This document shows, in pieces, positions 14,497-43,635 of a stretch of 64,000 nt of DNA. The translations under genes were made by a program, and so were the position numbers. The notes beneath the pieces were generated by a model. It was not told where the DNA came from. It saw only the letters and a program-made list of their open reading frames with translations, and did not search any database. The DNA comes from an uncultured Methanosarcinales archaeon (lineage in GTDB: Archaea > Nanobdellota > Nanobdellia > Woesearchaeales > GW2011-AR9), in assembly GCA_964344235.1 (NCBI GenBank), contig CAYFMJ010000001.1, positions 283,020 through 347,019 of the forward strand. Reading direction: 5' to 3'. Position 1 is the stretch's first letter. Each line of letters opens with the position of its first letter.

Positions 14497-15523
14497 TGAG
14501 GAACAGTACGACCGGTATGTTAGTAATGTTTCCAACGCTGGTTTTGAATATACTTTGCGTTGGCGCGATATTCTTCAACGTCATTTTGGTTTTCGCTCGC
14601 GATGTATCATCGCTAAGGACGAAGAAGGTAAGATTGTAGGGGTTCTGCCATTATTCCAAGCTCGAGGCATATTTGGTAAGAAGCTCGTTTCTTCTCCATA
14701 CGCGATTTATACGGGCATGTTGGCAGATAATGGAGTGGCGAGAGAAGAGATGATGCATTTTGCAAAACAGTTGTCGATTCAGGAACGTGTAAAATTTTGT
14801 GAGGTTCGTGAACAGTTTCAAGATGATTCCTATATTAAAAGAGGGTTTAGGGAAAACAGTACTGTGTTCAATTTCTCGCTTGCCTTATCTTCTGATGTCG
14901 ATGCCGTCTGGAAGAAATTGCCTAAAGGGAGCGTGCGTTGGGGGGTCAAGAAAGCCCAAAAGAGTGGCTTGCAGTGGCGTTGTGGTATTAGTGAGCGGGA
15001 GCTGCAAGGTTTTTATGCTTTGTTTCTTCAGACACGCAAACTGCGGGGTGTTCCGGGATATCCTTATGCCTATTTCAAAGAAATTCTCTCGACATTTGGG
15101 GAGAATGCGAGAATTTACGTTACTTCATACGAGAATAAACCTGTTGCTACAATCTTCTTGATATATCACAAGAATGAAGTGCGATATGCTTTTGCAGGAG
15201 CAGTTCACGATAAAACAATCATGCAATTGCAACCGTACCATCTTATAATGTGGGAAGCAATTAAAGATGCGTGTAACAGAGGGTATACAACGTTTAACTT
15301 TGGTGGTGCTACACTGCAAACAAATGATGGCGGGTTGTATAATTTTAAGAAGAGATGGGCAGATACGGTTGGGAAAGCGTATTCGTATTATTTCCTTCAT
15401 ACAATGAAAGAAGTTCCCTCAAGCGACACTGCATTTTTTGCTTTGGCCACGAAACTATGGAGGAAGCTGCCTCTGTCGGTTGTTGATACGTTAAGTCCTT
15501 TTGTGATACGGCAATTTGTTTAA
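14468..15523 (+). CDS. FemAB-like / Acetyltransf_6 (GNAT-fold) family protein, paralogue 1
   Basis: 351 aa. Conserved with 15553..16602 and 60917..61942 in the blocks LPLFQ, KLPKGSVRWGVKKAQKSGL, TRKLRGVPGYPYAYF, RYAFAGA, TFNFGGA and FKKRWA. Length and spacing are typical of FemAB/BioF2-like tandem GNAT proteins. Confidence 0.55.
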   Translation: MVCSLLAKDDEEQYDRYVSNVSNAGFEYTLRWRDILQRHFGFRSRCIIAKDEEGKIVGVLPLFQARGIFGKKLVSSPYAIYTGMLADNGVAREEMMHFAKQLSIQERVKFCEVREQFQDDSYIKRGFRENSTVFNFSLALSSDVDAVWKKLPKGSVRWGVKKAQKSGLQWRCGISERELQGFYALFLQTRKLRGVPGYPYAYFKEILSTFGENARIYVTSYENKPVATIFLIYHKNEVRYAFAGAVHDKTIMQLQPYHLIMWEAIKDACNRGYTTFNFGGATLQTNDGGLYNFKKRWADTVGKAYSYYFLHTMKEVPSSDTAFFALATKLWRKLPLSVVDTLSPFVIRQFV

Positions 15524-15552: not shown

Positions 15553-16602
15553 ATGAAATATACAATAACAATGTTAAGTGAGGAGGATCACGAGCTGTAT
15601 GCGCAGTTTGTTAGTAGCTGCCCTGATGCCCTTTATGAACATTCTTTAGCTGTGAAAGATTTGGTTCAAAGATATTTTAAGTTTGAACCGAGATATATTG
15701 TGGCGAAGAATTCAGTTGGACAAATTGTTGGGGCTTTGCCGTTGTTTAAAGCGAAGAGTTTTGTGGAAGGAACACGCCTCGTTTCTATCCCATTTTTTCC
15801 ATATGGCGGCGTGATTGGGGAGAGTGATGAATGTAAACGTTTGCTGTTAGAGGAAGCCAAGAAGTTGTCAAGTACAAGTAAGTTCTTGGAAATGCGTCAA
15901 CATGGTGAACTCTCGGCGGAAGTTGCTCGAGGTTTTGTAAGACAAGCCCCGATTATTAATTTTTATCTTGACTTGAAAGAGTCCGAGGAGGAGATGTTAC
16001 AATCGTTACATAAAAGTGTGCGATATGATATTCGAAAAGCACAGAAAAATAATTTGCAATTTTCTATGGGGGATACAACCAAGTTGCTCAATGATTTTTA
16101 TGATGTGTATCTGAACACGCGGAAGAGAAGAGGTGTACCGGCGTGGCCAATGGGGCTCTTTAAAGAGGCATTGAAAACATGTGATACAAAAGTTGCGGTG
16201 ACATACCATGAAGGAAAACCAATTGCTGGTTGCTTTTTATTTTTTGATAAAAAGACAATTGAATATGCTTTTGCGGGGACTGACTATCGGCACTCTGCGC
16301 TTTGTCCATATTATCTCTTACTGTGGGAGATTATTTGTTATGGAATCAAGCAAGGTTACACTGTTTTAGAGTTGGGTGGAACGACTAAAGTTATGAATGA
16401 GGGGAATATGTATTCTTTCAAGAAACGGTGGAGTACGAAAACTGAAGAGATCCCTTACTACTTTTATGCACGTGAGGAGAAAAATATTCCTGTGTTACAG
16501 AATTCATTTAAAGTGTATACTCTCTATGGTAAAGTTTGGAGTTTACTGCCGAAGTGGTTGATAAAAAAAATAAGTCCGCCAATTATACGGCAATTTAGTT
16601 GA
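15553..16602 (+). CDS. FemAB-like / Acetyltransf_6 family protein, paralogue 2
   Basis: 349 aa. Tandem duplicate of the upstream gene. Shared blocks: LPLFKA, HKSVRYDIRKAQKNNL, TRKRRGVPAWPMGLF, EYAFAGT, LELGGTT and FKKRWS. Confidence 0.55.
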   Translation: MKYTITMLSEEDHELYAQFVSSCPDALYEHSLAVKDLVQRYFKFEPRYIVAKNSVGQIVGALPLFKAKSFVEGTRLVSIPFFPYGGVIGESDECKRLLLEEAKKLSSTSKFLEMRQHGELSAEVARGFVRQAPIINFYLDLKESEEEMLQSLHKSVRYDIRKAQKNNLQFSMGDTTKLLNDFYDVYLNTRKRRGVPAWPMGLFKEALKTCDTKVAVTYHEGKPIAGCFLFFDKKTIEYAFAGTDYRHSALCPYYLLLWEIICYGIKQGYTVLELGGTTKVMNEGNMYSFKKRWSTKTEEIPYYFYAREEKNIPVLQNSFKVYTLYGKVWSLLPKWLIKKISPPIIRQFS

Positions 16603-27443: not shown

Positions 27444-28361
27444 TTAAAATTTATTTTTTAAGAATTTTAGGTCAACTTCTTCACGCCAGAATAAATTTCT
27501 TGCTTTGGCAAATGTGTTAAGGTTCTGCAGGTATAGACTCTGTTTTTGTGGGTCTTTAAACTCGTTCTCTAAGTTTGCTATTTCTTCTAGTTCAACTTTA
27601 ATTGTATCTTTATAGTCTTGATTTGTAAGGTGTTTTAGCATTGACTTATATTGTTGCTTTTTTAGATTAATCCCATATGAAATATATTTTGCATTAAAGC
27701 TTGTTTTCATTCCAGCAATATTACTATCATATTGGCGATAATAAGTATAGCTATTTTTGAGGAGTTTTGCTTTATGACCCTGTGCTAAGAGAGAGGAAAA
27801 AATCCACCAATCAGTTACTACTAAGTTTGAAGTTATTGGAAATATTTTTTCAAGAAGATTAGCCCTTATTGCAGTGTTATTTAGGCCACAAAGGTTTTTT
27901 TTAATGTTATCCACAAATGAAATCGTATCTGACTTAAGTTTTTCTTGATACCAAGGTCCACTTTTTTGTTTTCCATTTTCATATGTTGGAATGAGATCAG
28001 TAAATACAATTTCATCTGTTTGGAGAGCTTCTCTTGTTTTAGCTACTCGGTCTTTGTCAAAATAATCATCAGTATCGGTGAAAATAATCACTTTAACATT
28101 TTCCTTTTTAACTTTCTCTTGGAGTGAAGGGATAATGTATTGCCAAAGAGTGGGACCTTTCGCTCCCGGGTTTGGAACTGGAAGAATTTGAACTTTTATT
28201 TTAGAGTTTATTCGTGCAGTGACCTCTTCTGTGTTAGGATAATTATTGTCAAAAAGCCAAAGTTCGAAGTTAGTATCGGTTTGGTCATTAATGGCTTTTC
28301 TGTATTGGGGCCAAAATGGGCGCATTATGGGATACAGAACGCCAACAACTATTAATTTCAT
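27444..28361 (-). CDS. putative glycosyltransferase (GT-A-like, DxD motif)
   Basis: 305 aa. IIFTDTDDYF is a DxD-type motif. The gene is AT-rich. I cannot assign a family with confidence. Confidence 0.4.
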   Translation of the reverse strand: MKLIVVGVLYPIMRPFWPQYRKAINDQTDTNFELWLFDNNYPNTEEVTARINSKIKVQILPVPNPGAKGPTLWQYIIPSLQEKVKKENVKVIIFTDTDDYFDKDRVAKTREALQTDEIVFTDLIPTYENGKQKSGPWYQEKLKSDTISFVDNIKKNLCGLNNTAIRANLLEKIFPITSNLVVTDWWIFSSLLAQGHKAKLLKNSYTYYRQYDSNIAGMKTSFNAKYISYGINLKKQQYKSMLKHLTNQDYKDTIKVELEEIANLENEFKDPQKQSLYLQNLNTFAKARNLFWREEVDLKFLKNKF

Positions 28362-29053
28362 TTTCTCTTTCTCTCGTCTTTAAAATTGACTGGCTTTTGA
28401 TAACGAAATAATCTAGCATTGGGCATTACCATTACAGAGTTATCTTCAACGTCGGTTTGAATAATTGCTCCCGCTCCCGTTAGAACATTGTTCCCAATCT
28501 TTCTTTTTTCGATAATGCGAGTGCCCATACCAAAGAAGTTATAGTTACCAATAGTAACATTTCCACCAATGATTACACTCGTACAGAAATTACAGAAACT
28601 TCCAATATACGTGTCGTGTCCAATGACACAATAGCGGTTGAAGTAGTTAAAATCTCCAATTTCAATATCTGTTGTAAGGTTCGTTCCAACATTTATAATA
28701 TTTCCCTCTCCGAACTTTACTCCTTCGGCGTCATACAAAACTGAGGGATGAATTAAGTTTGGAAATGTAATGGAACACTGATTATACTGTTTAATCTTTT
28801 GTACAATTGTGGCCGTGGTTCGAGGTGTTCCGTTGGCGACGGCGATACAAATCTCGCTTTTACCCCGGAGGGCAGCATCGAGTGATGGAAATACTGGTAA
28901 GCCGTACACTTTTCTTCCTTTAAATTTCTTAGAGTTGTCAACAAATCCTAAGAGGTTGTAACCACCAATCTGTTTAATAAGCCAGGCAATGTGACGCCCT
29001 TGGCCTCCTGCACAGTAAACGATAATATCTAATGGGGGAACGGTCTCGACCAT
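28358..29053 (-). CDS. NeuD/PglD/PglB-family sugar acyltransferase (N-terminal Rossmann-like + LbH domain)
   Basis: 231 aa. N-terminal IIVYCAGGQGRHIAWLI...LGFVDN, then hexapeptide repeats (IGDFNYFNRYCVIGHDTYIGSFCNFCTSVIIGGNVTIGNYNFFGMGTRII). Confidence 0.75.
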   Translation of the reverse strand: MVETVPPLDIIVYCAGGQGRHIAWLIKQIGGYNLLGFVDNSKKFKGRKVYGLPVFPSLDAALRGKSEICIAVANGTPRTTATIVQKIKQYNQCSITFPNLIHPSVLYDAEGVKFGEGNIINVGTNLTTDIEIGDFNYFNRYCVIGHDTYIGSFCNFCTSVIIGGNVTIGNYNFFGMGTRIIEKRKIGNNVLTGAGAIIQTDVEDNSVMVMPNARLFRYQKPVNFKDERKRK

Positions 29054-29147
29054 GTGCTAGTTGAGGATATTCTCTTTTTAATTCTTATGAAAAATATGTT
29101 GTTTATTTCTACACAACCTTCTATGGAGTTGCTATCTTCTTAGAAAA

Positions 29148-29426
29148 TTAGACTTTTTTTGTAAGAATAAAGAGGTTATCTTTGATAGGCCTGAAGCCTT
29201 TTTGCTTTAAGAAAATGATAATTGATTTAATTGAAGTTAGTCTCGAGACTTCTGCTGGCGGAATGTTTTCTTGTAAGATCTTTTCAAGGCTGGTAATAAT
29301 ATCAAAGTGAGCAATGGAGTCCCATTGAGTATGAGTATCGCATGACGTCTCTATGGTGATCTGGCTAGAAGTAAGGTGTAACACTTTCTGAAATAACTGT
29401 TTTAAATTAATCGAGCTTATTACCAT
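29148..29426 (-). CDS. acyl/peptidyl carrier protein-like (4-helix, phosphopantetheine-attachment Ser)
   Basis: The Met at 29426 gives a ~92-aa protein. WDSIAHFDIITSLEKIL matches the ACP DSL...L serine motif. It overlaps the 3' end of the ligase gene by ~20 nt. The ORF track entry begins earlier, at 29501. Confidence 0.55.
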   Translation of the reverse strand: MVISSINLKQLFQKVLHLTSSQITIETSCDTHTQWDSIAHFDIITSLEKILQENIPPAEVSRLTSIKSIIIFLKQKGFRPIKDNLFILTKKV

Positions 29427-30939
29427 TGTATTCACCTGCAAGAAACAGTTCACGTACTTTGTTTCGTAAAATCTTCCCCCCTCCCCCGAGAGGGAAATCA
29501 TCGATGCTATATATCTCCTCTGGACATTTGTAACTGGCTAAACTATTATGACAAAATTGAACTACACTTTGAGGCTGCCCCTGCTTGCTCGATTCTTTAA
29601 TTTTAACAAGCCCGATTATTTTTTGATTTCTTATCGGATCTGGGATGGCAATGGTCACTGCATTCTCAACTGTGGGGTATGCATAAAGACATTCATCGAC
29701 CTCTCTAAGGGAAACGTTTTTTCCCCCGACAATTGCAATGTCCTTCTTTCTTCCTTTTAAAAAAAGGAATTCTTCCTCATCTACATAACCTAAATCTCCC
29801 GTGTCAAACCAGCTATCTTTGATGACTCTGTTAGTGTTTTCTATATCATCAAGGTACCCTGGCATTAAGCCTTCACAGCGCACCCAAATTTCACCTTCTT
29901 GTTTGGGTTGTGTAATGACATTTCCTTGCGTGTCTCGTATTTGATATTCCGTCATAACCGGTTTGCCGACAGACCCTTTCTTACGCTTCTTTCGCCCATT
30001 AACAAACAGCTGACCAGCGGTCTCACTCATCCCGAGAGAGTCAATCATTGGAAGGTAATAAATTGCTTCAAACTTTTCTTGTACTGAAGCAGGCAGAGGC
30101 GCAGAAGATGTACGAACGAAATCCATGGAGGATATATCAAACTCTTCTTTTTGTATTTCTGAGGCGACAATGATAGAATAATGTGTTGGGGTAGCGTTCA
30201 TCCATGTAGTTTTATATTGGTCCATTAAGTTGAACGTAGTAAAAGGAGTGAACATGCCTTGTTGGTAAACTGCACTACCACCTGTTCTTATAACAGACCA
30301 GATTGTAAAGATTTGTCCATTTGTACCAGAAAAAGGAGTTAGTGCGAGCAAACGATCTTTTGGTTTTAGTTCTAAAGAAATTTCCAAAGATTTTGCTCCC
30401 CAAAGAACATTTTTATGGGTTGATATGATCCCCTTCGGGCTTCCAGTACTTCCAGAAGTATAAAGACAAATGGCGGGGTCATCTTCCTCTATAACTCGAT
30501 CGCTCTTTGATGTAATACCAGATGAAATGGCTTTATCAATGGGGGCGATAAGCACCTGTGTCATTGAGTTCTTAACTTTTTGGGCGAATGAAATATGTTT
30601 GGGGTGAACAAGCAAGCAGTCTGCTCGGTATTTTTTGATTAGTTCTTCTTTTTCATCGTCAAGTAATTTTTCATCAGCCCATAGAACTAATGAACCGTGT
30701 GTGATCGCTCCAAAGTAAGCTAAGTAACCAGCTTTAGAGCGCGGTGATAGAATTAAAAGACGACTCTTTTTTGGAATATTGTTTCTGTCTAAATAGTTTG
30801 CTATAACATTAGATTTCTCAAAGAGCTCTCTATAACTAATTTCTTCGTTATCTTCTGGAAAAATCGCACAAATTTTATTTTGATACTTTTGGGCTTGTAT
30901 CTTCACTAATGCAGGGAGTGAGCGAATTGACATAATCAT
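29407..30939 (-). CDS. AMP-dependent synthetase/ligase (adenylate-forming enzyme; acyl- or aminoacyl-carrier protein ligase)
   Basis: 510 aa. Present: YTSGSTGSPKGI (A3/P-loop), WFDTGDLGY (A7), GRKKDIAIVGGKNVSLREVD (A8). Confidence 0.85.
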   Translation of the reverse strand: MIMSIRSLPALVKIQAQKYQNKICAIFPEDNEEISYRELFEKSNVIANYLDRNNIPKKSRLLILSPRSKAGYLAYFGAITHGSLVLWADEKLLDDEKEELIKKYRADCLLVHPKHISFAQKVKNSMTQVLIAPIDKAISSGITSKSDRVIEEDDPAICLYTSGSTGSPKGIISTHKNVLWGAKSLEISLELKPKDRLLALTPFSGTNGQIFTIWSVIRTGGSAVYQQGMFTPFTTFNLMDQYKTTWMNATPTHYSIIVASEIQKEEFDISSMDFVRTSSAPLPASVQEKFEAIYYLPMIDSLGMSETAGQLFVNGRKKRKKGSVGKPVMTEYQIRDTQGNVITQPKQEGEIWVRCEGLMPGYLDDIENTNRVIKDSWFDTGDLGYVDEEEFLFLKGRKKDIAIVGGKNVSLREVDECLYAYPTVENAVTIAIPDPIRNQKIIGLVKIKESSKQGQPQSVVQFCHNSLASYKCPEEIYSIDDFPLGGGGKILRNKVRELFLAGEYNGNKLD

Positions 30940-31021
30940 TTGAAAAGTTTAGTTTTTTTAAATCTTTAGAAACTCTTTTTGTGAAGACGAGTCTTTATTG
31001 GGCACCTTGTTTTAAGATCTT

Positions 31022-31405
31022 TTACTTTCTTACGTACTTCTTGGAAACTATTGCAAATGCAAGCGCATATTCTGGAGTATGTGATAAAGAGACCTTTACC
31101 TGAAAACGATTTTGTATTTCGGGATAATGGATGAATACATTTGGTGAGCCATCTTCTTTTTTTTTTACTTCAATACATTTGAGGTCACCTTTAAAATCAA
31201 TCTTTAGAACAAGGCCCATCAAAGCTTTAAAAACTGCTTCTTTGGTTGCAAAACGGGCTGCTAGATGTTGAGCTGGGTCTGTTTTTGAAAAGCAATAATC
31301 AAGCTCAGCCTGCCAGAATATTTTTGTGAGAAAGTTTTTATTTGATAATTTCTCTTTAAATCTGGAGATTGCACAAATATCTGTTCCAATAGCGAGGACT
31401 TCCAT
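31022..31405 (-). CDS. acpS: holo-[acyl-carrier-protein] synthase (AcpS-type 4'-phosphopantetheinyl transferase)
   Basis: 127 aa. AIGTDICAISRF, LAARFATKEAVFKALMG, IEVKKKEDGSPNV and VSLSHTPEYALAFAIV align block-for-block with bacterial AcpS. Confidence 0.8.
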   Translation of the reverse strand: MEVLAIGTDICAISRFKEKLSNKNFLTKIFWQAELDYCFSKTDPAQHLAARFATKEAVFKALMGLVLKIDFKGDLKCIEVKKKEDGSPNVFIHYPEIQNRFQVKVSLSHTPEYALAFAIVSKKYVRK

Positions 31406-31631: not shown

Positions 31632-32414
31632 ATGGAACAAGAAATCTATTTTCCAACATCAACATCCGATTTGTTATTTGGAAAGCTTCAATGTCCAGAA
31701 GTTGGTGATTTTGGGCCAAAAAGGCGAAAGCTTGTTATTCTATCTCACGGTTATGGTTCGCATTTAGATGCTCGGACAACGCAAATTGGTGTCGTTGGTG
31801 CTCTCTATAAGCGGGGAATTGATACTTTTAGATTTTCGTTCTGGGGAAGCAGCCATTCTGCAGGCAATTTTGAGAAGAATACCCTTACGCAATATATCTC
31901 TGACCTTGAGGCTGCAGTGCGTTATGCGCGAGAAGTTCTGGGATATCACCACATAAGTTTGTATGGCTTTAGTTGTGGAGGTACTATTTCGCTCCATGTT
32001 GCAGCCAAAGATCCTACTATCGAAAAGGTTGCAGTTGTCGCTCCAGTTCTTGATTATCCTGCACAAAGAAGACGTAGACTTGGTGATCTTGTAATGAAGC
32101 ACTGGGAGGAGAGTGGAAAGTTAGAGTTTCCCAATTATGGTGAGGAAAAACATGTTCATTATTACTTCATAGAAGATGCTTACCAGCATATTCTCTTAGA
32201 TGAAGAAGCGACGGTTAATAGGTTGTTAGAAATCTCCCAACCAGTATTACTTCTCCATGGGACGGCGGATTCAGAAGTCCCCTTTTCGCAAAGTCTTCGT
32301 GCTCACGAATCCTTGCCTTCTTCGGAAGTTAGATTATTTGAGGACGATGATCATTGGCTTAGAGCGAATCGTCAGGAGGTTGATGGGTACATTGCAGAAT
32401 GGTTGTCTCAGTGA
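31632..32414 (+). CDS. alpha/beta-fold serine hydrolase
   Basis: 260 aa. The nucleophile elbow is YGFSCGG (GxSxG). A His is present near the C-terminus (DDDHW). Confidence 0.65.
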   Translation: MEQEIYFPTSTSDLLFGKLQCPEVGDFGPKRRKLVILSHGYGSHLDARTTQIGVVGALYKRGIDTFRFSFWGSSHSAGNFEKNTLTQYISDLEAAVRYAREVLGYHHISLYGFSCGGTISLHVAAKDPTIEKVAVVAPVLDYPAQRRRRLGDLVMKHWEESGKLEFPNYGEEKHVHYYFIEDAYQHILLDEEATVNRLLEISQPVLLLHGTADSEVPFSQSLRAHESLPSSEVRLFEDDDHWLRANRQEVDGYIAEWLSQ

Positions 32415-32417
32415 ACC

Positions 32418-32978
32418 TTATCCTTGTTTCTTAATCTTTCTAATATCTATATAATCTATCCCTAAATTCTTAGCAGCATTCTCATCAGATGTTGAATTTC
32501 CGATAAAAAGAATTTTTGGGATTGCAGTGTCGAAATATCTTCTAATTATCAAAAACCCTTCTGAGTTTGGTTTTGTAAAATTAACTTGGTCTTTACCAAC
32601 AATTAATCCAATTCTTTTTCCAATGGCGAATTTTTGCAAGACTTCTCTGATAACTGAAGACTGATTTGATGACCAGACCACCTGTGGCCCAAGGAATTCT
32701 TTCATGATACTCTTGCACTTCTCATTTTCTTTAAAACCATTAACTCCTTGCGATTCGAACTGGTAGGCGATTTCATTAAACTCTTTCTTCCCTACTTCTC
32801 CTAATCTTTCATACACAGTGCTTGCACCACCCGAGTAACTCGTGAAATCAATATCCATGTTGTGTTTCTCTAAGAAATGGTTATGTAATGCCGACCGAAG
32901 AGCGGCCCAATCAACATCTAATTTTCCGATTGTGCCATCAAAGTCCAAGATCAGCAAGTCATATCGTTGGAAATCCAT
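32418..32978 (-). CDS. HAD-superfamily phosphatase
   Basis: 186 aa. Motif I is LILDFDGTIG (DxDGT). Motif III is a K upstream of GNSTSDENAA. Confidence 0.7.
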   Translation of the reverse strand: MDFQRYDLLILDFDGTIGKLDVDWAALRSALHNHFLEKHNMDIDFTSYSGGASTVYERLGEVGKKEFNEIAYQFESQGVNGFKENEKCKSIMKEFLGPQVVWSSNQSSVIREVLQKFAIGKRIGLIVGKDQVNFTKPNSEGFLIIRRYFDTAIPKILFIGNSTSDENAAKNLGIDYIDIRKIKKQG

Positions 32979-33990
32979 TTTCTTGGTATGTTTTTATTGC
33001 GTTCTTTAAATGTGTTATCTTTCGTTGCAATCCAGGAAGCAATTCATCAATAAAATCACTATTGAGCGAATAGTTTAATAAATCTTCCACCCATATACGG
33101 ATTGCGACAATGGGGATACATTCTTTTTCTTGTGCTGTTAAAGGTAATTCTTGGTTGTATGTTTCAATGTAGTGGGTTGCTCTTTCTTGATTAAATGGTA
33201 TGATGTTGCCTTCTGCGTTCCTCGTTGAGAAACACCACATCGCGTAAACTACATCTCTGATATGAGGAATATACATCATCTCGTCTGGGTCAAGCAGTGC
33301 ACTTACCTCGCCTTTTTGATAAATAACGTTTCCTGGCCAGATGTCTTTATGCGCAACGATTTTTGGTAAAGCAGGGTATTGTTTTTTATCAACCAATGCT
33401 ATTTGTTGCTCAACAAGCGGGAGCACTTCTTGTACTCGCTGACGAAACATGCTTGCTGTAGCGCTTTTTGCTTTCTTGCGTACTTCTTGTAACGTTACCT
33501 GTAACCGTTCCCGGCGGAGGAAAATGCTTCTTGTCTCTTTTATGTGCATAACATTGGTGGGTGCCATCGTAGTGAGTGTGCGGTTTAGTGTTGCATGGAA
33601 CTTTGCCATGCTTTGGACTTCAGGTATTATGCTTTGAAATGAACTGCCTTCAATAAAAGGGTAGAGAACGTAATAGTTCTCATTATACTTGACATAGATA
33701 GTATTTTCATTTGTTGTTAGATAGCTGACGAGTGGAATATTCTCGTTCATTACATGCTGCATGAAATGTTGCAAGCCTTTAAAGTAGTGTTCTGGAGTGC
33801 ATAATGCAAAATATTCTTTAGGGATTTCTTTCAGCACGAATTTTGTTGTTCCCTCTGTTAAAAGATGAAGCGAACTTTTTGCATTAAATTTTATGTGAGT
33901 TGATGAACTAAGATTTTTTAGGTTTTTAGAATATGATCTGTTGATGTTTTGTAGCAAATTTTGGGATATCATTGTTTTTGATTTATACAA
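32959..33990 (-). CDS. APH/ChoK-fold small-molecule kinase (aminoglycoside phosphotransferase-like)
   Basis: 343 aa. The catalytic loop is HKDIWPGNVIY (HxDxxxxN). A DPDEM block (DxD-like) follows. Confidence 0.6.
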   Translation of the reverse strand: MYKSKTMISQNLLQNINRSYSKNLKNLSSSTHIKFNAKSSLHLLTEGTTKFVLKEIPKEYFALCTPEHYFKGLQHFMQHVMNENIPLVSYLTTNENTIYVKYNENYYVLYPFIEGSSFQSIIPEVQSMAKFHATLNRTLTTMAPTNVMHIKETRSIFLRRERLQVTLQEVRKKAKSATASMFRQRVQEVLPLVEQQIALVDKKQYPALPKIVAHKDIWPGNVIYQKGEVSALLDPDEMMYIPHIRDVVYAMWCFSTRNAEGNIIPFNQERATHYIETYNQELPLTAQEKECIPIVAIRIWVEDLLNYSLNSDFIDELLPGLQRKITHLKNAIKTYQENGFPTI

Positions 33991-34075: not shown

Positions 34076-35122
34076 ATGGACTCAGAGATATATCAGCGGT
34101 TGACAAATGAGACGAAACCTTTTGTTCTGGCGGAAATTGGTTCAAATCACATGGCCAGTATGGAGACTGCTAAAGAGCTTATTGATGCAGCGGTTGAAGC
34201 TGGCTGTGATGGTGTTAAGTTTCAATCACTTGGTTGGAATGATTGGAATTCGAAAACGGTTTTTCAAAAAAGACGTAACTATACTGCTCCTGGCTTGCTA
34301 GTGGTTGGGCTAGAGGCCACTAATAAGTTACTTGAACTCTCAAAAGAGCAACATCACGAATTAAAAAGGTATTGTGATGAGAAAGGCATTCTTTTTTCTT
34401 CAACTCCCGCAACTAACGCCCAAATAGATATGCTTGTTGATGAGCTGAAAGTTCCATTCTTAAAAATTGCTTCAATGGATTTAACAAACCACGATTTCCT
34501 ACGCTATGCTGCATCGAAGGGCGTTCCGATTGTTCTTTCAACGGGGATGGCACTACTTCATGAAATTGCCGAGGCTGTTGAAGTAATTAAGGGAACCGGT
34601 AATGATCAATTGATTCTTCTACATTGTGTGGCAACATATCCTACCCCTCACGATTGGGTTGATCTCCAAAACATCTCCATGTTAAAAGATACTTTTGGTT
34701 TTCCAATTGGCTTTTCAGATCACACTTTGACAGCGGATATCCCAATTGCATCAGTGGCGTTGGGTGCTTGTTTTATTGAGAAACATTTTATGTTAGAAGG
34801 GCAGGAGTGTCGTGAAAAGAAAGTATCCATTACTCCCTCACAAATGAAGCGATTGGTAGAAGGGGCACATAATGTTGGTATGGCAATGGGAACGTATCAT
34901 AGACGCTTAACTGAGCAGGAAGTAATACGAAGAGGATGGATGCGTCGAGGGATTTTGGTTCGAAAAGATTTACCTGCAGGACATATTCTTACGAGGGAAG
35001 ATTTAGTCTTTAAGAGACCAAGTGGTAAGATCCCCGCCAAGGATTGGAAGTATGTTGTTGGGAGAAAGCTTAAGGAGGCAAGGGAAGCAGATGATGTTCT
35101 TGGTTTAGAGGATTTTGAGTGA
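34076..35122 (+). CDS. neuB: nonulosonic acid (sialic/pseudaminic/legionaminic acid) synthase, NeuB family with C-terminal SAF domain
   Basis: 348 aa. VLAEIGSNHMASMETAKELIDAAVEAGCDGVKFQS matches the NeuB N-terminal block (EIGxNHNGS...KFQ). The C-terminal ~60 aa form an antifreeze-like/SAF domain. Confidence 0.85.
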   Translation: MDSEIYQRLTNETKPFVLAEIGSNHMASMETAKELIDAAVEAGCDGVKFQSLGWNDWNSKTVFQKRRNYTAPGLLVVGLEATNKLLELSKEQHHELKRYCDEKGILFSSTPATNAQIDMLVDELKVPFLKIASMDLTNHDFLRYAASKGVPIVLSTGMALLHEIAEAVEVIKGTGNDQLILLHCVATYPTPHDWVDLQNISMLKDTFGFPIGFSDHTLTADIPIASVALGACFIEKHFMLEGQECREKKVSITPSQMKRLVEGAHNVGMAMGTYHRRLTEQEVIRRGWMRRGILVRKDLPAGHILTREDLVFKRPSGKIPAKDWKYVVGRKLKEAREADDVLGLEDFE

Positions 35123-35260: not shown

Positions 35261-36367
35261 ATGAATATACTTGTTACTGGAACGCACAGAGAAGCGACAA
35301 ACACCCTCACTCCTGTTGTAAAAGAATTGGTGCGAAGGGGTCATGATGTGACGGTTTATGCAACAGGGAATGAGCGGGAAGCGGCAGGATTTAATGGACT
35401 TGAATATGAACAGCAGATCCCTACTTCTGATCAATACATAGTGTTAGTTCAAGGTTATGATCTTGTTGTCGCAGGCGTGTCAGGGCCACAAACTCCAGAT
35501 GGATATGTCATTCGCGCCGCAAGGGATAGAGGAATACCTGTTGTTGGTGTTGTTGGGCAGAATCGAGTGTTTAATGTTCGTTTTGGTACTGTTGATGATT
35601 TACCTGATCATATTACTGTTCCAGGGGAAGATTCATACGATTTAGTGAGGGAAGCTGTCGGTGAATGTCTGGCAACGGAAATAATCCGAAGAGCGGTTCC
35701 GGTTGGCTTTCCAGCGTTTGATCATTACGCAGCAACGCGTGAGCGTTTTACTTCTAAACGGCGAGAAGCATTTGTTGCTGAACTTGAATTGGAAGGGCCG
35801 TTTGTTTTTTACCCCTCTGCAAATTTAGACCCAAACACCGACTACATGCGGAGATCGACACGAGATCCTGTTGACAAACGGCAACGGTTTGAGTATGCTC
35901 TACGGCTTACTGAAGAAACATTTAGAGTGGCGTCAGACTTAGGTTTGCATATGGTTGTAAAGCCTCATCCTGGTGAGCAGACAAGACCCAGACACACTTT
36001 AGGGCTTGCGGAACGATTTGGCGTTACATATTTGAGCTACGATCGGTGTGGGACCCAGGATTTACTCCTTGCATCTGCTGTAGTAGTTGCAGGAGAGAGC
36101 GGCTGTTTAAATGAAGGGTGCCTCTTTGATAGAAATACAGGGGCGTTGTTTCCTGGATTGGATGAGGATGTTGTACCCCAATTCTCTGCGACGAAAACGG
36201 GAGCGATTCCTTACACTTTCGAATGGGAGGGTATTGGAAGGATCCTTACTGAGCTTACTTCCTCAGATGAAGATGTACAACGGAGACTTGCTGATCAAAG
36301 AAAAAGGTTTTCTGTTGATGGAAAAGGCGCACAGCGTGTTGCAGATTTAGTTGAGAGAGTGCTCTGA
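35261..36367 (+). CDS. GT-B-fold protein with HP motif (PseG/TagF/KpsS-like glycosyl- or glycerophospho-transferase/UDP-sugar hydrolase candidate)
   Basis: 368 aa. The N-terminal Rossmann-like block is MNILVTGTHREA...GHDVTVYATG. The C-terminal half carries VVKPHPGE. It looks GC-richer than the flanks by eye. Confidence 0.4.
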   Translation: MNILVTGTHREATNTLTPVVKELVRRGHDVTVYATGNEREAAGFNGLEYEQQIPTSDQYIVLVQGYDLVVAGVSGPQTPDGYVIRAARDRGIPVVGVVGQNRVFNVRFGTVDDLPDHITVPGEDSYDLVREAVGECLATEIIRRAVPVGFPAFDHYAATRERFTSKRREAFVAELELEGPFVFYPSANLDPNTDYMRRSTRDPVDKRQRFEYALRLTEETFRVASDLGLHMVVKPHPGEQTRPRHTLGLAERFGVTYLSYDRCGTQDLLLASAVVVAGESGCLNEGCLFDRNTGALFPGLDEDVVPQFSATKTGAIPYTFEWEGIGRILTELTSSDEDVQRRLADQRKRFSVDGKGAQRVADLVERVL

Positions 36368-36395: not shown

Positions 36396-37469
36396 TTAGG
36401 GGCGAGTTGGTATTACTGGTTGCCCTGTTTTTGATCTGAAAATATCTGTATGCCCAACATAGTCTATCTTTCCTGTCTTTATCATTTGGAAAGCAAGATC
36501 TTTGAATCTAGCACTCCACTCTCTACGAAATCCTTCTGCTCCATAGTAGTTCGCAGCAGAGCCTACGGTGTGAGCTACACGTAAAAGAAGTTCTAATTGC
36601 TGTGTTAGCGGACCTTCATGGTTGTACGTTCCTCCCTCACTTTGATGGCCCCTTCGTAACGCTTCTTGTCCAGCAATCAATGTTTCATTGTCAAAATAGC
36701 TAGTGAACAGTGAATGGACGAGGTACATTTCTTGTTCCACCGGTCCTGCTTGACTCCATTCAACATCGGGAAAACTGGGATTACCTGCACTGTCAACGAG
36801 AATATTTCTTGGATGTAAATCAGCTATTGTGAACACGGGGGTGATATGGCTTTCAACTTCTACTATACTCGCAAGGCTTCTCTCGAGAAAACGATTTACT
36901 TCTTCTACTTCCCTTTCAGTGTATGCTGGGGATTGTGTCAATCTGGCTAATCGATAAACAATAAATTGTTTTGCTCTTGCTGTGAACTGTGGGGGGCCTT
37001 GCACACCTTCGGGATTGATGTCACCAAATTTTTCGTATGTTTTGCGGTGGGCTTTTGCTAATTCCATCCCTAGTCTTTCTAAAGAGGCAAGAAAAACGCC
37101 TAATGAATAATCGTGTTCTCTCAAATATTGATCCCATGTCTTTCCAGTGAGTTTTTCTGCAACAAGGAATCGTTCATCGTCAACTTTGAAAGGACCTCTC
37201 ATTTTTGGAGTACGAATCCCTAATTCATTCCTGAGAAAGTTACACAGATAGCCTTCTCTCTCTAGGGAAATTACTCCCCCGTAATGTGAATCTCTTTTCA
37301 CCCTGTGCTTGTCTAATTTTGTAGCTCTTTCAAATCGTACGACAACTTCTTCACCGGAATCTAACGTTACCTCAAAGTTATCATGAGATCGACCTTCAGA
37401 AATTGCGGTAATGGTGTCAACAGAATGTCCTGCTTGTTCAAGTAGTCTCTGAGCACGTTGTTGGTCCAT
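36396..37469 (-). CDS. APH-fold kinase (phosphotransferase enzyme family)
   Basis: 357 aa. IADLHPRNILVDSAGNPSFPDVEWS is the HxxxxN catalytic loop followed by a DVE(W) metal-binding block. The gene is translationally coupled to the upstream cytidylyltransferase gene. Confidence 0.6.
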   Translation of the reverse strand: MDQQRAQRLLEQAGHSVDTITAISEGRSHDNFEVTLDSGEEVVVRFERATKLDKHRVKRDSHYGGVISLEREGYLCNFLRNELGIRTPKMRGPFKVDDERFLVAEKLTGKTWDQYLREHDYSLGVFLASLERLGMELAKAHRKTYEKFGDINPEGVQGPPQFTARAKQFIVYRLARLTQSPAYTEREVEEVNRFLERSLASIVEVESHITPVFTIADLHPRNILVDSAGNPSFPDVEWSQAGPVEQEMYLVHSLFTSYFDNETLIAGQEALRRGHQSEGGTYNHEGPLTQQLELLLRVAHTVGSAANYYGAEGFRREWSARFKDLAFQMIKTGKIDYVGHTDIFRSKTGQPVIPTRP

Positions 37470-38161
37470 TATCCTCTTTTCCGCATTAAGAATTCTGTTA
37501 TGTCAAAGTCGTGTTGTGTATCAATGTCGGTTGAATGCTCAACCGGCATAATATAAGGGTACGTTTTATCCGGGTACTCTCCACTTTCATCAAAAAGAAC
37601 AGATGGTTTGAACACAAACATATTCCCATTGTGAAGGTACACTTTGTCGTTGTCTTGTCGGTTCCCGAAGACTCCCTTTCTGTTGCTCCTAGGTCTTATA
37701 GTTCCATCGTCTTGAATTATCTTAATTCTGTTAGGGTGGACATCAGTTTCACACACTCCTATGACAGCATTTGCATTGTTTTTGAGAAAAATCTCAATGG
37801 CATTGTCAATATCCTGGGCTGTCCGCAAGGGTGAAGTTGGCTGTAAAATAACAACAATGTCTGGGTTGTACCCTGTCTCTTTCTGTAATCGGTCAATTGT
37901 GTAACGGTAGGCATCTGTTGCATCTGCATCATCTGTTGCTAATTCAGCTGGCCGCATAAATGGAATTTCGATGTCATAATGAGAACAAACTTGAGAGATC
38001 TCATTACTGTCAGTTGATAAAACCAGTTTGTTGATAAACTTTGATTTATTCGCTGCTTCAATAGAATAGGCAACCAGCGGTTTGCCATTTAGGGGCTTAA
38101 TGTTCTTTCCAGGAAGGCCTTTTGATCCTCCGCGAGCTGGAATAATTGCTAAAATATTCAT
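37469..38161 (-). CDS. neuA: N-acylneuraminate (CMP-nonulosonate) cytidylyltransferase, NeuA/KdsB family
   Basis: 230 aa. NILAIIPARGGSKGLPGKNIKPLNGKPL is the NeuA-type N-terminal signature. Confidence 0.85.
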   Translation of the reverse strand: MNILAIIPARGGSKGLPGKNIKPLNGKPLVAYSIEAANKSKFINKLVLSTDSNEISQVCSHYDIEIPFMRPAELATDDADATDAYRYTIDRLQKETGYNPDIVVILQPTSPLRTAQDIDNAIEIFLKNNANAVIGVCETDVHPNRIKIIQDDGTIRPRSNRKGVFGNRQDNDKVYLHNGNMFVFKPSVLFDESGEYPDKTYPYIMPVEHSTDIDTQHDFDITEFLMRKRG

Positions 38162-38258: not shown

Positions 38259-40439
38259 ATGATTAAAAAGATGGATAAACCAGCAATCATAGGTGGAAGA
38301 AAAGAGTTTGAAGAGTTTTTACCGATAGTAAGACCTTCTTTACCAACACTCTCTCAGATAAGCGTTCAAGTAGAAGAAGTTCTGGCGAGCGGCATGGTGA
38401 CGAATTTTTCGAAGTATACTCAACAGCTGGAACGTGAGTGTGGAAATTATCTAAACGTTAATTTTAGTCTTTCTCAACCAAACGCCACCACTGGATTACT
38501 GTTACTCTGTAAAGTGTTAGGTCTTACGGGAGAAGTTATTGTACCAAGTTTTACTTTCTCAGCGACTGTTCATGCACTGATTTGGAATGGCCTTACACCA
38601 GTTTTTGTTGATATTGACCCTGAAACGTTTAACATTGATCCAAAACTCGTGGAAGAAAAGATAACAGACAAGACCTCTGCCATTTTAGGAGTACACATTT
38701 TTGGTAATCCCTGTGACGTTAAGGAATTAGAAGAAATAGCGAGGAAACATGATTTAAAATTACTCTTCGATGCTGCTCATGCCTTTGGTTCGGAGTATCA
38801 AGGAAAGAAAATCGGAGGCTGTGGTGATGCAGAAGTTTTTAGTATGAGCGGAACTAAATTATTAGTGACTGGAGAGGGAGGTTTAATTACCACTACAGAT
38901 AAAGATTTGTCTGACAAGCTTAGGTTAGCAAGGAACTATGGGGATCCGGGAAATTATAATTGTGTTTTTGTTGGTTTTAATGGAAAAATGTCTGAGTTTT
39001 CAGCGATTATTGGCTTGCAGTCTCTGAAAGATATTTCTGGTCAAGTTAGGAATAGAAATATTATTAGAAATATTTTCGAACAAGAGTTACGAAGTGTTCC
39101 GGGAATTAGTTTTCAGAAGATAAGAGAAGGAAATATCACATCAGTGAAAGACTTTTCAATTATAGTTGATAAGAATGAATTTGGCATCAGTAGAGATCAA
39201 TTGGCTAAGTGTTTAGCAGCGGAGAACATTCATTCCAAAAAATATTTTTATCCTCCAATTCATTTTATGGATGCTTATAGAGAGTTTCATGAACAGTATT
39301 ATGGGAAACTACCACACACGGAAAAAGTCTCCTGGAACATTCTTTGTTTGCCGATCCATAGTACTATGTCGGAAGAGCAGGTAAAGAAGATATGCAATGC
39401 AATTAGGAGAATTCAGCATTTTCATCAAGAAATTGTTCAGGAAGCGGAAGATATTAGTTCAGTGTTGATAACAGGGGGCGCAGGGTATGTGGGAGTTGTC
39501 TTAGCAAGGCAGTTGTTAGAGCAAGGGTATAAAGTTAAAATTCTGGACCAGCTTATTTTTGGTAAAGAGCCTTTACAAGAGATTGAAGGACATCCAAACT
39601 TTAGCTTGGAAGTTGGTGTGGTTGAGGATAAATATGTGGTAGAAAAGAGTTTAGAGGGGATTGATGCAGTTATTCATTTGTCTGGTTTATCCAATGATCC
39701 TTCTTGTGAGTTAAACTCTGATTTGACGAAGAAATCAAATATAGATGCAACGAAAGTTCTTTTACAGTTTGCAAAAGCAAAAGGCGTAAAGAGATTTATC
39801 AATGCTTCTTCATGTAGTGTGTATGGTTTTACAAATGGTGTTTTGGTGGATGAACAAAGTCCGCCAAACCCTCTGACTGCTTATGCAAAATCGAAAGTAA
39901 AAAGTGAGGAGTTAGTTCTCGCTGAGTCAGAGGAAGATTTTGTGACAGTTTGTTTACGAAAATCAACGATTTATGGCCCTTCACCAAGAATGAGGTTTGA
40001 TCTTGTTATTAACACAATGACGGGAATGGGAATGAGTGAGGGCAAGATTGTTATCAATGGTGGTGAACAATGGCGCCCTTTCTTGCATGTTGAAGATGCA
40101 GCGAGTGCGTATCTGTTTATGTTACAAGCACCTAAAGAACAAATCAATGGGCAAGTGTTCAACGTAGGGAGTAACTACCAAAACATTAAAATTATAGATT
40201 TGGCGCATAGAATTGCTGCTGTTCTTCCTGGCGTAAAGGTTGAGCAGAGTCACTCTCCCGATAAAAGGAGTTATTTAGTTAGTTTTGATAAAATCAGTGC
40301 ACTTGGCTGGAAAGCTACATTTGATATCGAAGATGGAGTTCATGGTGTGAAAAAACTATTTGATGAAGGAAAAGTGAAGAATTTTCGCGATTTAAATTAT
40401 TTTAACATAAAGAGAATGATTTCCTATTTGAATGTTTAG
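38259..40439 (+). CDS. bifunctional fusion: N-terminal DegT-family aminotransferase + C-terminal NAD-dependent sugar-nucleotide dehydratase/epimerase (PseC/LegC-PseB/LegB-like)
   Basis: 726 aa. Residues ~1-380 carry the DegT blocks (VIVPSFTFSATVHAL, FSMSGTKLLVTGEGG). Residues ~395-726 carry VLITGGAGYVGVVLARQL (GxxGxxG) and YAKSKVKSE (YxxxK). Confidence 0.8.
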   Translation: MIKKMDKPAIIGGRKEFEEFLPIVRPSLPTLSQISVQVEEVLASGMVTNFSKYTQQLERECGNYLNVNFSLSQPNATTGLLLLCKVLGLTGEVIVPSFTFSATVHALIWNGLTPVFVDIDPETFNIDPKLVEEKITDKTSAILGVHIFGNPCDVKELEEIARKHDLKLLFDAAHAFGSEYQGKKIGGCGDAEVFSMSGTKLLVTGEGGLITTTDKDLSDKLRLARNYGDPGNYNCVFVGFNGKMSEFSAIIGLQSLKDISGQVRNRNIIRNIFEQELRSVPGISFQKIREGNITSVKDFSIIVDKNEFGISRDQLAKCLAAENIHSKKYFYPPIHFMDAYREFHEQYYGKLPHTEKVSWNILCLPIHSTMSEEQVKKICNAIRRIQHFHQEIVQEAEDISSVLITGGAGYVGVVLARQLLEQGYKVKILDQLIFGKEPLQEIEGHPNFSLEVGVVEDKYVVEKSLEGIDAVIHLSGLSNDPSCELNSDLTKKSNIDATKVLLQFAKAKGVKRFINASSCSVYGFTNGVLVDEQSPPNPLTAYAKSKVKSEELVLAESEEDFVTVCLRKSTIYGPSPRMRFDLVINTMTGMGMSEGKIVINGGEQWRPFLHVEDAASAYLFMLQAPKEQINGQVFNVGSNYQNIKIIDLAHRIAAVLPGVKVEQSHSPDKRSYLVSFDKISALGWKATFDIEDGVHGVKKLFDEGKVKNFRDLNYFNIKRMISYLNV

Positions 40440-42236: not shown

Positions 42237-43538
42237 ATGAAAAAAGTATATGTCGCAATGAGTGCAGACTTCTTACACGAAGGTCATATGAACATCCTAG
42301 ACGAAGCTCGGAAATTAGGAGAAGTAACAATAGGATTATTGACAGATGAGGCTGTAGCTACATATAAAAGAATGCCCCTTTTGAGTTATGAACAACGGAA
42401 GAGAATTTTTCGAAATATTGTTGGCGTTTGTGATGTTATACCACAGCATACTTTAGATTATGAAGAAAATATTCGTCAGTTGAAGCCAGACTTTGTTGTT
42501 CATAGTGATGATTGGAAAACGGGAATACAGAAGCCGATCCGGGAAAAGGTAGTTGCCACTTTACAAGAATGGGGAGGAATACTGATTGAACCAAGATATA
42601 CTGAAGGGATTTCCTCTTCGAAAATGGTTGGTCAAATTCGGGAGAGGGGCACTACTCCTGATGTACGAAGAAATATGCTGCGTCGATTGTTAGCAGCAAA
42701 ACCATTAGTAAGAGTTCTAGAAGCTCATAATGGTCTCACTGGGTTGATTGTTGAAAAAACAAAAATACAGAATCACTTAGGACATATTAAAGATTTTGAC
42801 GGAATGTGGTTAAGCAGTTTGACGCATTCTACCTCTAAGGGAAAACCAGATATTCAATACGTTGATATTACATCCACTGGTCAGACCATTAGTGAAATTT
42901 TTGAAGTTTCTACCAAACCACTAATTGTTGATGCGGATAATGGTGGGCTTATCGAACATTTTCGTTTTACTGTGAGAACGCTGGAAAGGCTTGGTGTATC
43001 TGCAGTTATTATTGAAGATAAAGTGGGAGCAAAACGGAACTCGTTATTTGGAACTGATGTTAAGCAGACACAAGATAGTATTAAAGGCTTTTCAGAAAAG
43101 ATTTCGGAGGGTAAGAAATCTCTAGTTTCTGATGATTTTATGATTATTGCTAGGATTGAAAGTTTCATTTTGAAGAAGGGTCTGGAGGACGCTCTAACCC
43201 GGGCAAGAGCGTACATAGAAGCAGGAGCAGATGCTATTATGATTCATAGTAAAGAGAATTCACCGTCGGAGATTCTTTCTTTCTGTGAAGAGTATAAAAG
43301 GTTTAGCACGAGAGTTCCATTGGTTGCTGTCCCATCTTCGTATAGTGAGATTACTGAGGAGCAATTAATAGAAGCAGGGGTGAATGTTGTGATCTATGCA
43401 AATCACTTACTAAGAAGTGCGTATCCAGCAATGGTTAGGGCGGCGGAGTCTATATTACAACATGGGCGCTGTCATGAAGCGAGCAAGAACTGTATGGAAA
43501 TTAAAGAAATTCTCAAATTGATACCTAATGGAGAGTAG
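42237..43538 (+). CDS. ppm: bifunctional cytidylyltransferase / phosphoenolpyruvate phosphomutase (Fom1-like CyTase-PEPM fusion)
   Basis: 433 aa. The N-terminal ~130 aa are a cytidylyltransferase-like HxGH domain (YVAMSADFLHEGHMNIL). The C-terminal ICL/PEPM domain has EAHNGLTG and the PEP-mutase-specific signature EDKVGAKRNS (EDKX5NS), plus a VDADNGG metal site. Confidence 0.85.
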   Translation: MKKVYVAMSADFLHEGHMNILDEARKLGEVTIGLLTDEAVATYKRMPLLSYEQRKRIFRNIVGVCDVIPQHTLDYEENIRQLKPDFVVHSDDWKTGIQKPIREKVVATLQEWGGILIEPRYTEGISSSKMVGQIRERGTTPDVRRNMLRRLLAAKPLVRVLEAHNGLTGLIVEKTKIQNHLGHIKDFDGMWLSSLTHSTSKGKPDIQYVDITSTGQTISEIFEVSTKPLIVDADNGGLIEHFRFTVRTLERLGVSAVIIEDKVGAKRNSLFGTDVKQTQDSIKGFSEKISEGKKSLVSDDFMIIARIESFILKKGLEDALTRARAYIEAGADAIMIHSKENSPSEILSFCEEYKRFSTRVPLVAVPSSYSEITEEQLIEAGVNVVIYANHLLRSAYPAMVRAAESILQHGRCHEASKNCMEIKEILKLIPNGE

Positions 43539-43635
43539 AGTACCAATATAGTGGACTAATTTAGAGTTCAAAGGTGGCCTTTGAAACAATCACTTTTACA
43601 TATGATTTATAAAGAGGAATACGTGTCGAACCATT

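Follow-up and report, generated by a model that had tools for sequence, protein, structure and literature searches.

The 64-kb window analysed here (64,000 nucleotides of contig CAYFMJ010000001.1 from an uncultured archaeon; "the window" means this whole stretch) contains a block of five co-directional genes on the minus strand, between positions 27444 and 31405. They encode an AcpS-type 4'-phosphopantetheinyl transferase, an adenylating ligase, a small acyl carrier protein (ACP), a left-handed beta-helix (LbH) acyltransferase and a protein resembling family 2 glycosyltransferases (GT2-like), and the first four make up a putative module for carrier-dependent acylation. According to the literature, hardly any archaea possess ACP or ACP synthase, save for a few horizontal acquisitions, and this absence is the basis of the idea of an ACP-independent fatty-acid metabolism (PMC3533463; bioRxiv 10.1101/2024.07.05.601840); an earlier note on this DNA, made from the sequence alone, had started from the same premise, which is thus found in the literature. 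There is one carrier open reading frame (ORF) and one AcpS ORF in the whole window. The genes of the block, and the divergent gene beside it, are as follows.

31022..31405, minus strand: AcpS-type 4'-phosphopantetheinyl transferase, 127 amino acids (aa); PF01648 and TIGR00516; kept in three related lineages (L012, L013 and the P0129 contig)
29407..30939, minus strand: adenylating ligase of the ANL superfamily, 510 aa; PF00501, PF13193 and core motifs
29148..29426, minus strand: stand-alone acyl carrier protein of a WDS[IL]xH subfamily, 92 aa; family alignment and profile matches
28358..29053, minus strand: LbH N-acyltransferase of the NeuD/PglD/VioB family, 231 aa; PglD_N and Hexapep, with matches to VioB and PerB
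27444..28361, minus strand: GT2-like protein, 305 aa, the final gene of the co-directional block; PF00535 at 25.3 bits, which is marginal
31632..32414, plus strand, divergent from AcpS: esterase-like hydrolase of the alpha/beta fold, 260 aa; Hydrolase_4 and Abhydrolase_1

The AcpS and ligase genes are separated by 82 nt and the carrier and acyltransferase genes by 94 nt. The ATG of the carrier sits 20 nt inside the ligase frame, with GGTGA 6 nt upstream of it, and the GT2-like and acyltransferase genes share 4 nt. The automatic ORF of the carrier begins upstream at 29501; homologues and metagenome gene calls favour the ATG at 29426.

AcpS is recognized by PF01648 (E 1.1e-15, 58 bits against a cutoff of 25) and by the NCBIfam equivalog-domain model TIGR00516 acpS (61.8 bits against a cutoff of 59.8). 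It aligns over its full length with AcpS of B. subtilis (1F7L/1F80), in keeping with the block-for-block likeness to the bacterial enzyme claimed in the earlier note. Residues D9, E56, K60 and H109, which lie in its own blocks 'IGxD', 'RFAxKEAxxKA' and 'SxSHT', match the 'GLD', 'KEA..K' and 'THT' blocks of the B. subtilis protein, and the first three correspond to the Mg2+/CoA-binding residues D8, E58 and K62. All four are unchanged across an alignment of the window AcpS with 11 homologues. AcpS is predicted to prime the carrier.

The carrier has the motif W35-D36-S37-I38, in which Ser37 is the predicted phosphopantetheine site. A word-index homologue search with the carrier returned only the carrier itself, so that an exhaustive HMMER search was needed; phmmer against 1.84 billion representatives gave 106 matches, nearly all of 70-95 aa. 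In a 33-sequence alignment of the family, W35 and S37 never vary and D36 and H40 hardly do, which defines the WDS[IL]xH motif, and PF00550 is matched by 28 of the 33 members. Among solved ACPs, the family profile matches PDB 2lml at 5e-14 and the E. coli ACP at 9e-14, and it sets Ser37 in register with the DSL serine of the E. coli protein. Consistently with this alignment, the DSL-type serine noticed earlier holds. Profiles that lack the window carrier and its close clade score it at 86-95 bits and are not fully independent of it, because their members were originally chosen by similarity to the query.

Judged from its sequence, the ligase is unambiguously an ANL enzyme. PF00501 (E 1e-60) and PF13193 mark its N- and C-terminal ANL domains, and the motifs A3 (TSGSTGSPKG, residues 161-170), A5 (GMSE), A7 (TGD), A8 (GRKKD) and the A10 lysine are all located; the AMP-binding motifs A3, A7 and A8 and the overlap with the carrier gene, both proposed earlier, are real. 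The ligase clade comprises about nine homologues at 38-59% identity, and outside it identity drops to about 30% with generic FadD-like enzymes. Amino-acid-activating adenylation domains bind the alpha-amino group of the substrate through an Asp in A4. The A4 region of the window ligase is 'PFSGTNG', which has no Asp, and its top 60 PDB matches are nearly all carboxylic-acid ligases or luciferases, the exceptions being a single peptide synthetase and a single 2,3-dihydroxybenzoate-AMP ligase; DltA is absent among these 60. Such features make a Dlt-like aminoacylation unlikely, in which the ligase would charge the carrier with an activated amino acid, for example D-Ala, for the decoration of a glycan or polymer. 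In Dlt D-alanylation (DltA/DltC/DltB/DltD), an activated amino acid is passed by way of the MBOAT protein DltB and of DltD to extracytoplasmic teichoic acids, giving an ester. The window shares with it a stand-alone adenylating enzyme that would load a small dedicated carrier for decoration of a surface polymer, an architecture resembling DltA/DltC, and N-alanyl and similar nonulosonates are known chemically. However, no sign of amino-acid activation, teichoic acids or ester formation was found in the window, and Pfam scans, which took in 50 window ORFs of at least 150 aa, detected no MBOAT/DltB or DltD. Aminoacylation of this type is highly improbable, and a Dlt homologue was rejected on account of the A4 region, the carboxylic-acid ligase relatives and the missing DltB/DltD. 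Of the two analogies drawn in the earlier note, the one with Dlt is weaker than the one with N-acylation of sugars.

The acyltransferase has an N-terminal PglD_N domain (PF17836) followed by Hexapep repeats (PF00132), in agreement with the NeuD/PglD-type LbH enzyme that had been recognized downstream on the same strand. It reaches 154.7 bits with TIGR03570 NeuD, slightly short of the cutoff of 160.8. Its best PDB match is VioB (7txp, 2.6e-23), followed by PerB (4ea7), and its His146 ('IGHD') aligns with the catalytic His of PerB ('vvdHD'). The orthologues in sister loci are 58-64% identical to it, and a GT2-like orthologue of 53% identity lies directly after the acyltransferase in L012/L024. 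The divergent gene encodes an alpha/beta hydrolase, as had been stated; its best PDB matches are carboxylesterases, and an orthologue of 56% identity adjoins NeuB in L012/L024/L026. For this hydrolase, a role as an esterase or as an editing thioesterase is conceivable.

The module is surrounded by genes for NeuB, a CMP-nonulosonate synthetase, an aminotransferase-dehydratase fusion, two APH-family kinases and an HAD phosphatase. The neighbours with their positions are listed here.

32418-32978, minus strand: HAD phosphatase (Pfam scan)
32959-33990, minus strand: APH-family kinase (Pfam scan)
34076..35122, plus strand: NeuB-family nonulosonic acid synthase; PF03102, E 4.6e-71
37469..38161, minus strand: CMP-nonulosonate synthetase (CTP_transf_3); PseF model, 157.7 bits, E 3e-46
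38259..40439, plus strand: sugar 4-aminotransferase (DesI/PseC/LegC-like) fused to an NAD-dependent 4,6-dehydratase, 726 aa

NeuB scores 289.8 bits with TIGR03569 and 236 bits with PseI, each under its cutoff. The 726-aa fusion scores 339 bits with DesI, 209 with PseC and 177 with LegC, and 93 with LegB on its C-terminal half, and it likely supplies a 4-amino-4,6-dideoxy acceptor. Aminotransferase and 4,6-dehydratase are fused in the window (38259-40439, plus strand), whereas L012, L013 and the P0129 contig each encode them in two genes. These clusters contain no PglD_N-type enzyme besides the PglD-like protein. The genes of the APH kinase and the HAD phosphatase share 20 nt, and L012 (4481-6109) has the two as a single fused protein of 542 aa; both are conserved along with the cluster, at tblastn identities of 34-40%. 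A kinase-phosphatase pair (32418-33990, minus strand) beside NeuB brings to mind routes by way of phosphorylated nonulosonates, with which a 6-deoxy sugar is hard to reconcile. A 368-aa ORF (35261-36367, plus strand) lies between NeuB and a kinase and has a GC content of 0.46, the highest of the cluster. It has no Pfam or PDB match, its only NCBIfam match is to the BFO_1060 glycosyltransferase model at 16.8 bits, far under the cutoff, no orthologue was found in the sister loci, and its single-sequence AlphaFold2 model (pLDDT 38.7) is unusable; this ORF might account for the nucleotide-sugar hydrolase or epimerase step that is otherwise missing. The wider window contains AglB, flippases, many glycosyltransferases, a UDP-GlcNAc 2-epimerase and WbpB/E/D-like genes. 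The Agl-locus setting suggested in the earlier note therefore stands as a glycan island with AglB, and is to be narrowed for the immediate surroundings, which are specifically a nonulosonic-acid cluster.

Three contigs of the ligase clade, at 56-59% identity, were inspected, and the module (ligase, overlapping carrier, PglD-like LbH enzyme and AcpS) was found in three further lineages, namely the P0129 contig, L012/L014/L024-26 and L013. In every such lineage it adjoins CTP_transf_3, DegT and Polysacc_synt_2 genes, and NeuB as well in both contigs that are long enough. The order is CTP_transf_3, ligase, 81-aa carrier (20-nt overlap), PglD-LbH, AcpS and NeuB on the P0129 contig; AcpS, PglD-LbH, GT2-like, APH-HAD fusion, NeuB, alpha/beta hydrolase, CTP_transf_3, ligase and carrier in L012; and AcpS, dehydratase, DegT, CTP_transf_3, ligase, carrier and PglD-LbH in L013. 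In all three, the CMP-nonulosonate synthetase gene is directly upstream of the ligase gene. The overlap of ligase and carrier is kept at 11-20 nt in L012, L013, the P0129 contig and a more distant locus, L031, which makes five loci with the window. A scan of genome and metagenome collections for the carrier motif, by way of a 5-sequence carrier alignment, recovered the L012 lineage again. The match of L014, which belongs to this lineage, is 'MAG: archaeon isolate SI039_bin19' (MAG, metagenome-assembled genome). By tblastn, the L012 lineage is 64% identical to the window in the acyltransferase, 56% in the ligase, the alpha/beta hydrolase and NeuB alike, 53% in the GT2-like protein, 49% in the carrier and 39% in AcpS. 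With both the orthologous module and the orthologous sugar genes present in the SI039_bin19 lineage, the module is inherited along with the sugar pathway.

In more distant loci, AcpS and carrier are retained and the loader or the transferase is exchanged. L031, whose ligase is 42% identical to that of the window, has AcpS, an AAC(3)-like N-acyltransferase, the ligase, an overlapping WDS carrier and, further on, CTP_transf_3. L033, in the Nanoarchaeota MAG GCA_964360275.1 (8001-11705), has AcpS, a 602-aa FkbH-like loader, a 76-aa WDSFNH carrier, MaoC and an AAC(3)-like N-acyltransferase, all set within a UDP-sugar dehydrogenase/aminotransferase cluster. A Micrarchaeota MAG has AcpS, HMGL-like and AMP-binding genes beside a flippase. 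Among bacterial homologues of the ligase are didomain proteins with AMP-binding and PP-binding domains, and in P0140-P0144 ligase, WDS carrier and N-acyltransferase form a single tridomain chain. These fusions support a flow from loader to carrier to N-acyltransferase and are the strongest computational argument for this order.

In L006, L010, L011 and L031, AcpS and a WDS carrier occur with an HMGL-like aldolase, an AMP-binding ligase, a Cyclase protein (PF04199), an AAC(3)-like N-acyltransferase and an aminopeptidase-like protein (DUF4910/DUF2172). It seems that this gene set represents a second, uncharacterised kind of cassette for the carrier-dependent modification of sugars.

All four protein families of the module are typically bacterial, and the near relatives of AcpS include many bacteria (Omnitrophota, Endomicrobia, Elusimicrobia), as would be the case if a bacterial fragment had been mis-joined to an archaeal contig. 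However, identical proteins in the same arrangement of module and neighbours are present in assemblies of four separate sequencing runs (one project) and on the NCBI contig of 412 kb (412,874 bp). The GC content of the module genes (0.33-0.40) and that of their third codon positions (0.27-0.39) are inside the spread of the flanking genes, the module has orthologues with orthologous flanks in the MAG labelled archaeon, and the nearest named relatives of AcpS are from Micrarchaeota and Nanoarchaeota. On these four grounds an assembly chimera was rejected, and bacterial contamination is scarcely credible. The archaeal nature of the contig is further supported by its other genes: the 140-kb ENA contig that holds the window encodes a type II methionyl aminopeptidase (311 bits against a cutoff of 223), which is the archaeal/eukaryotic type, and the window encodes an STT3/AglB protein of 924 aa, whose sole NCBIfam match is archaeo_STT3, together with an Alg13/Alg14 pair. 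Scans of the window for tRNA genes and Rfam families gave no match to help the taxonomy. The earlier note had listed as grounds for abandoning its proposal a carrier without the serine, an AcpS without the Mg-binding Asp/Glu residues and absence of the module from relatives; the serine and the Asp/Glu residues are in place, and relatives carry the module.

From sequence and gene context, we consider it fairly probable that the module is a self-contained cassette for carrier-dependent N-acylation inside an archaeal nonulosonic-acid cluster of the legionaminic/pseudaminic type. Families, catalytic residues and conservation of the module are consistent with a self-contained system of priming, loading and transfer, as first proposed. 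AcpS would transfer 4'-phosphopantetheine from CoA onto Ser37 of the 92-aa carrier; because the host is expected to have no housekeeping priming enzyme, the cassette would bring its own. The ligase, translationally coupled to the carrier, would adenylate a free carboxylic acid without an alpha-amino group, probably a short or functionalised one, and thioesterify it onto the holo-carrier. The PglD/VioB-family LbH enzyme would then take the acyl-carrier in place of acetyl-CoA and pass the acyl group to the 4-amino group of an NDP-4-amino-4,6-dideoxy-hexose(NAc), itself the product of the fused aminotransferase-dehydratase. After removal of the nucleotide, NeuB would condense the product with phosphoenolpyruvate (PEP) and the cytidylyltransferase would activate it, the presumed end product being a CMP-5-acetamido-7-acylamido nonulosonate for a surface glycan. 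In the pseudaminic and legionaminic acid (Pse/Leg) pathways, C4 of the hexose becomes C7 of the nonulosonate, which would place the acyl group on the 7-amino position. More speculatively, the divergent alpha/beta hydrolase may remove wrong acyl groups from the carrier.

Several observations weigh against this scheme. Taken alone, the carrier is the weakest call of the module: the HMM check suggested earlier succeeded with PF01648 and PF00501, but the lone carrier sequence reaches only 17-18 bits with PF00550, under the gathering threshold of 20.8, and its single-sequence AlphaFold2 model (pLDDT 43.6) is untrustworthy, with helices plausibly placed. The nearest solved relatives of the ligase are oxalyl-CoA and fatty-acyl-CoA ligases, which make CoA thioesters. 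Characterised PglD, PerB and VioB enzymes take acetyl-CoA as donor, and the use of an acyl-carrier by the acyltransferase is not readable from its sequence. The aminotransferase half fits best a model of the dTDP-glucose series (DesI). No clear NeuC/LegG or PseG step adjoins the module, an Epimerase_2 gene lying 9 kb off, and the 368-aa neighbour (35261-36367) cannot be assigned to any family. The scheme also leaves the adjacent APH and HAD genes unexplained.

The solved ligase relatives would suit an arrangement in which the ligase is an ordinary acyl-CoA synthetase (e.g. for oxalyl- or short-acyl-CoA), the LbH enzyme uses acyl- or acetyl-CoA, and carrier and AcpS serve some other acyl transfer. 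Consistently, one JGI homologue of the ligase is auto-named oxalate-CoA ligase, and the characterised enzymes of the NeuD/PglD family use acyl-CoA. However, the overlap of ligase and carrier is kept in five loci, fusions of ligase with carrier and of ligase, carrier and N-acyltransferase exist, and the window has no other carrier-using enzyme. An acyl-CoA route of this kind is thus improbable, and the conserved gene overlap and the carrier-domain fusions point indirectly to the carrier, not CoA, as the probable thiol acceptor of the ligase.

The best score of the aminotransferase half, with DesI, means that the acceptor could be a viosamine-like sugar instead of a nonulosonate precursor. The chemistry would then be the same, but the acylated NDP-4-amino-4,6-dideoxyhexose, of the viosamine, perosamine or bacillosamine type, would enter the glycan unconverted. 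VioB and PerB as the best PDB matches of the acyltransferase, the acylation of viosamine by the best-studied analogue, and the co-conserved GT2-like gene directly after the acyltransferase gene all fit with such an acceptor. However, the module occurs with a CMP-nonulosonate synthetase in four lineages and, on contigs of sufficient length, also with NeuB, and a Leg/Pse-type pathway requires exactly one PglD-type N-acylation, for which the cluster offers no second PglD_N enzyme. An unconverted acceptor sugar is accordingly rather unlikely, and the nonulosonate precursor is preferred.

A remnant of a fatty-acid synthase was also considered. Pfam scans found no ketosynthase, ketoreductase, dehydratase, malonyl-CoA:ACP transacylase or enoyl reductase of fatty-acid synthesis in the 64-kb window; the absence of the first four excludes both the remnant and a role of the carrier in fatty-acid synthesis. 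The window cassette is a member of neither the Dlt nor the fatty-acid synthase systems, and it sits in an island of the N-glycan type. LpxA and LpxD are LbH acyltransferases that transfer long-chain 3-hydroxyacyl groups, supplied by fatty-acid synthesis, from acyl-ACP to UDP-amino sugars for lipid A. They share with the window enzyme an LbH fold able to use a carrier-bound donor, but they belong to another LbH subfamily (weak match, E 1e-8 only) and act on lipid A, not on glycan nonulosonates.

The design of the cassette has bacterial precedents. Its closest genetically studied analogue is the viosamine island of P. syringae pv. tabaci, which contains vioA, vioS, vioB, vioR, acp, vioM and vioT and has homologues, orfA-orfE, in the flagellin glycosylation island of P. 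aeruginosa PAK (PMC3927599). There, ACP, 3-ketoacyl-ACP synthase III (KAS III), a ketoreductase and VioB yield 4-N-(3-hydroxybutanoyl)viosamine on flagellin (PMC3927599). As in the window, a dedicated small ACP, a VioB-like LbH acyltransferase and a sugar 4-aminotransferase are combined in one glycan locus; the product is a 4-N-acyl 4-amino-4,6-dideoxy sugar instead of the N-acetyl form, as is proposed for the window. In the P. syringae island, however, KAS III (VioS) and the ketoreductase (VioR) assemble the acyl chain on the ACP, and the housekeeping AcpS does the priming. In the window, no ketosynthase or ketoreductase of the short-chain dehydrogenase/reductase type adjoins the module; an ANL ligase stands there, which would bring a ready-made acid, and the cassette has its own AcpS, an archaeal host and a NeuB/CMP-synthetase context.

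Flagellin glycosylation islands (FGIs) of other bacteria have an ACP and an AMP-dependent synthetase beside pse genes (Aeromonas group II FGI, PMC7874193; Enterobacteriaceae FGIs, PMC4875605). As in the window, ACP and ligase lie among pseudaminic-acid genes and are presumed to provide acyl decoration of a nonulosonate or glycan, a function that is likewise putative. These islands differ in that they contain FabG, LuxE and LuxC, have no AcpS of their own, and serve O-linked flagellin glycosylation in bacteria. The tridomain bacterial proteins (e.g. P0142 from Solidesulfovibrio sp.) resemble the module in the ligase lineage (about 30% identity), the WDS motif and the order of loader, carrier and N-acyltransferase, but they are single uncharacterised chains whose AAC(3)-like acyltransferase has another fold.

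'Holo-ACP synthase' has already been auto-annotated by NCBI in some DPANN MAGs, so that the presence of the gene alone is not new. No account of a nonulosonate pathway with a self-priming cassette for sugar N-acylation was found in the literature searched. We tentatively suggest, as a broader and rather doubtful generalization, that several uncultivated archaeal lineages (that of the window, the 'archaeon' MAG, and the Micrarchaeota and Nanoarchaeota MAGs) may use AcpS and WDSxxH carriers as portable self-priming cassettes for glycan acylation and not for lipid synthesis. Loaders (ANL ligase, FkbH) and N-acyltransferases (PglD-type LbH, AAC(3)-like) would be interchangeable, glycan decoration might be the main or only use of phosphopantetheinylation, and N-acyl nonulosonic acids or amino sugars could be new to archaeal surface glycans. 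The locus and its relatives offer a concrete conserved setting in which archaea retain ACP and AcpS, and they lead to the testable prediction that a surface glycan of an archaeon bears a new N-acyl nonulosonate. The compact system of four genes (priming enzyme, carrier, ligase and transferase) could be reconstituted in vitro to diversify the N-acyl groups of nucleotide sugars. Furthermore, matches to ACP or AcpS in archaeal MAGs should not be taken as evidence of bacterial-type fatty-acid synthesis.

The glycan island also holds a PEP mutase fusion, three FemAB-like proteins and two B12-radical SAM enzymes. At 42237-44775 (plus strand), a 433-aa cytidylyltransferase-PEP mutase fusion is followed by an Fe-dependent alcohol dehydrogenase, and the same fusion occurs on the P0129 sister contig. 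This suggests a phosphonate decoration of the glycan, of the hydroxyethyl- or aminoethylphosphonate type. The proteins of the FemAB family/Acetyltransf_6 are encoded at 14468-15523, 15553-16602 and 60890-61942 (plus strand); bacterial FemAB enzymes add amino acids from aminoacyl-tRNA, and the three window proteins may attach amino acids to a sugar. The B12-binding radical SAM enzymes (7367-9079, minus strand; 51189-52898, plus strand) may act as C-methylases or modify sugars or phosphonates in some other way. A ferredoxin-domain protein at 52895-53548 (minus strand) has a C-terminal pterin-binding-like domain, DUF4346, whose relatives form the C-terminus of MtrA and that of archaeal proteins resembling dihydropteroate synthase. 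The two subunits of an ATP-citrate-lyase-type enzyme are encoded directly beside the glycan island, one at 875-2104 (minus strand) and one in the next gene outside the window (L021, 11227-13032). Just outside the window on the same contig, there is a free-standing ORF resembling homing endonucleases of the LAGLIDADG_3 family (L021, 17552-18301).

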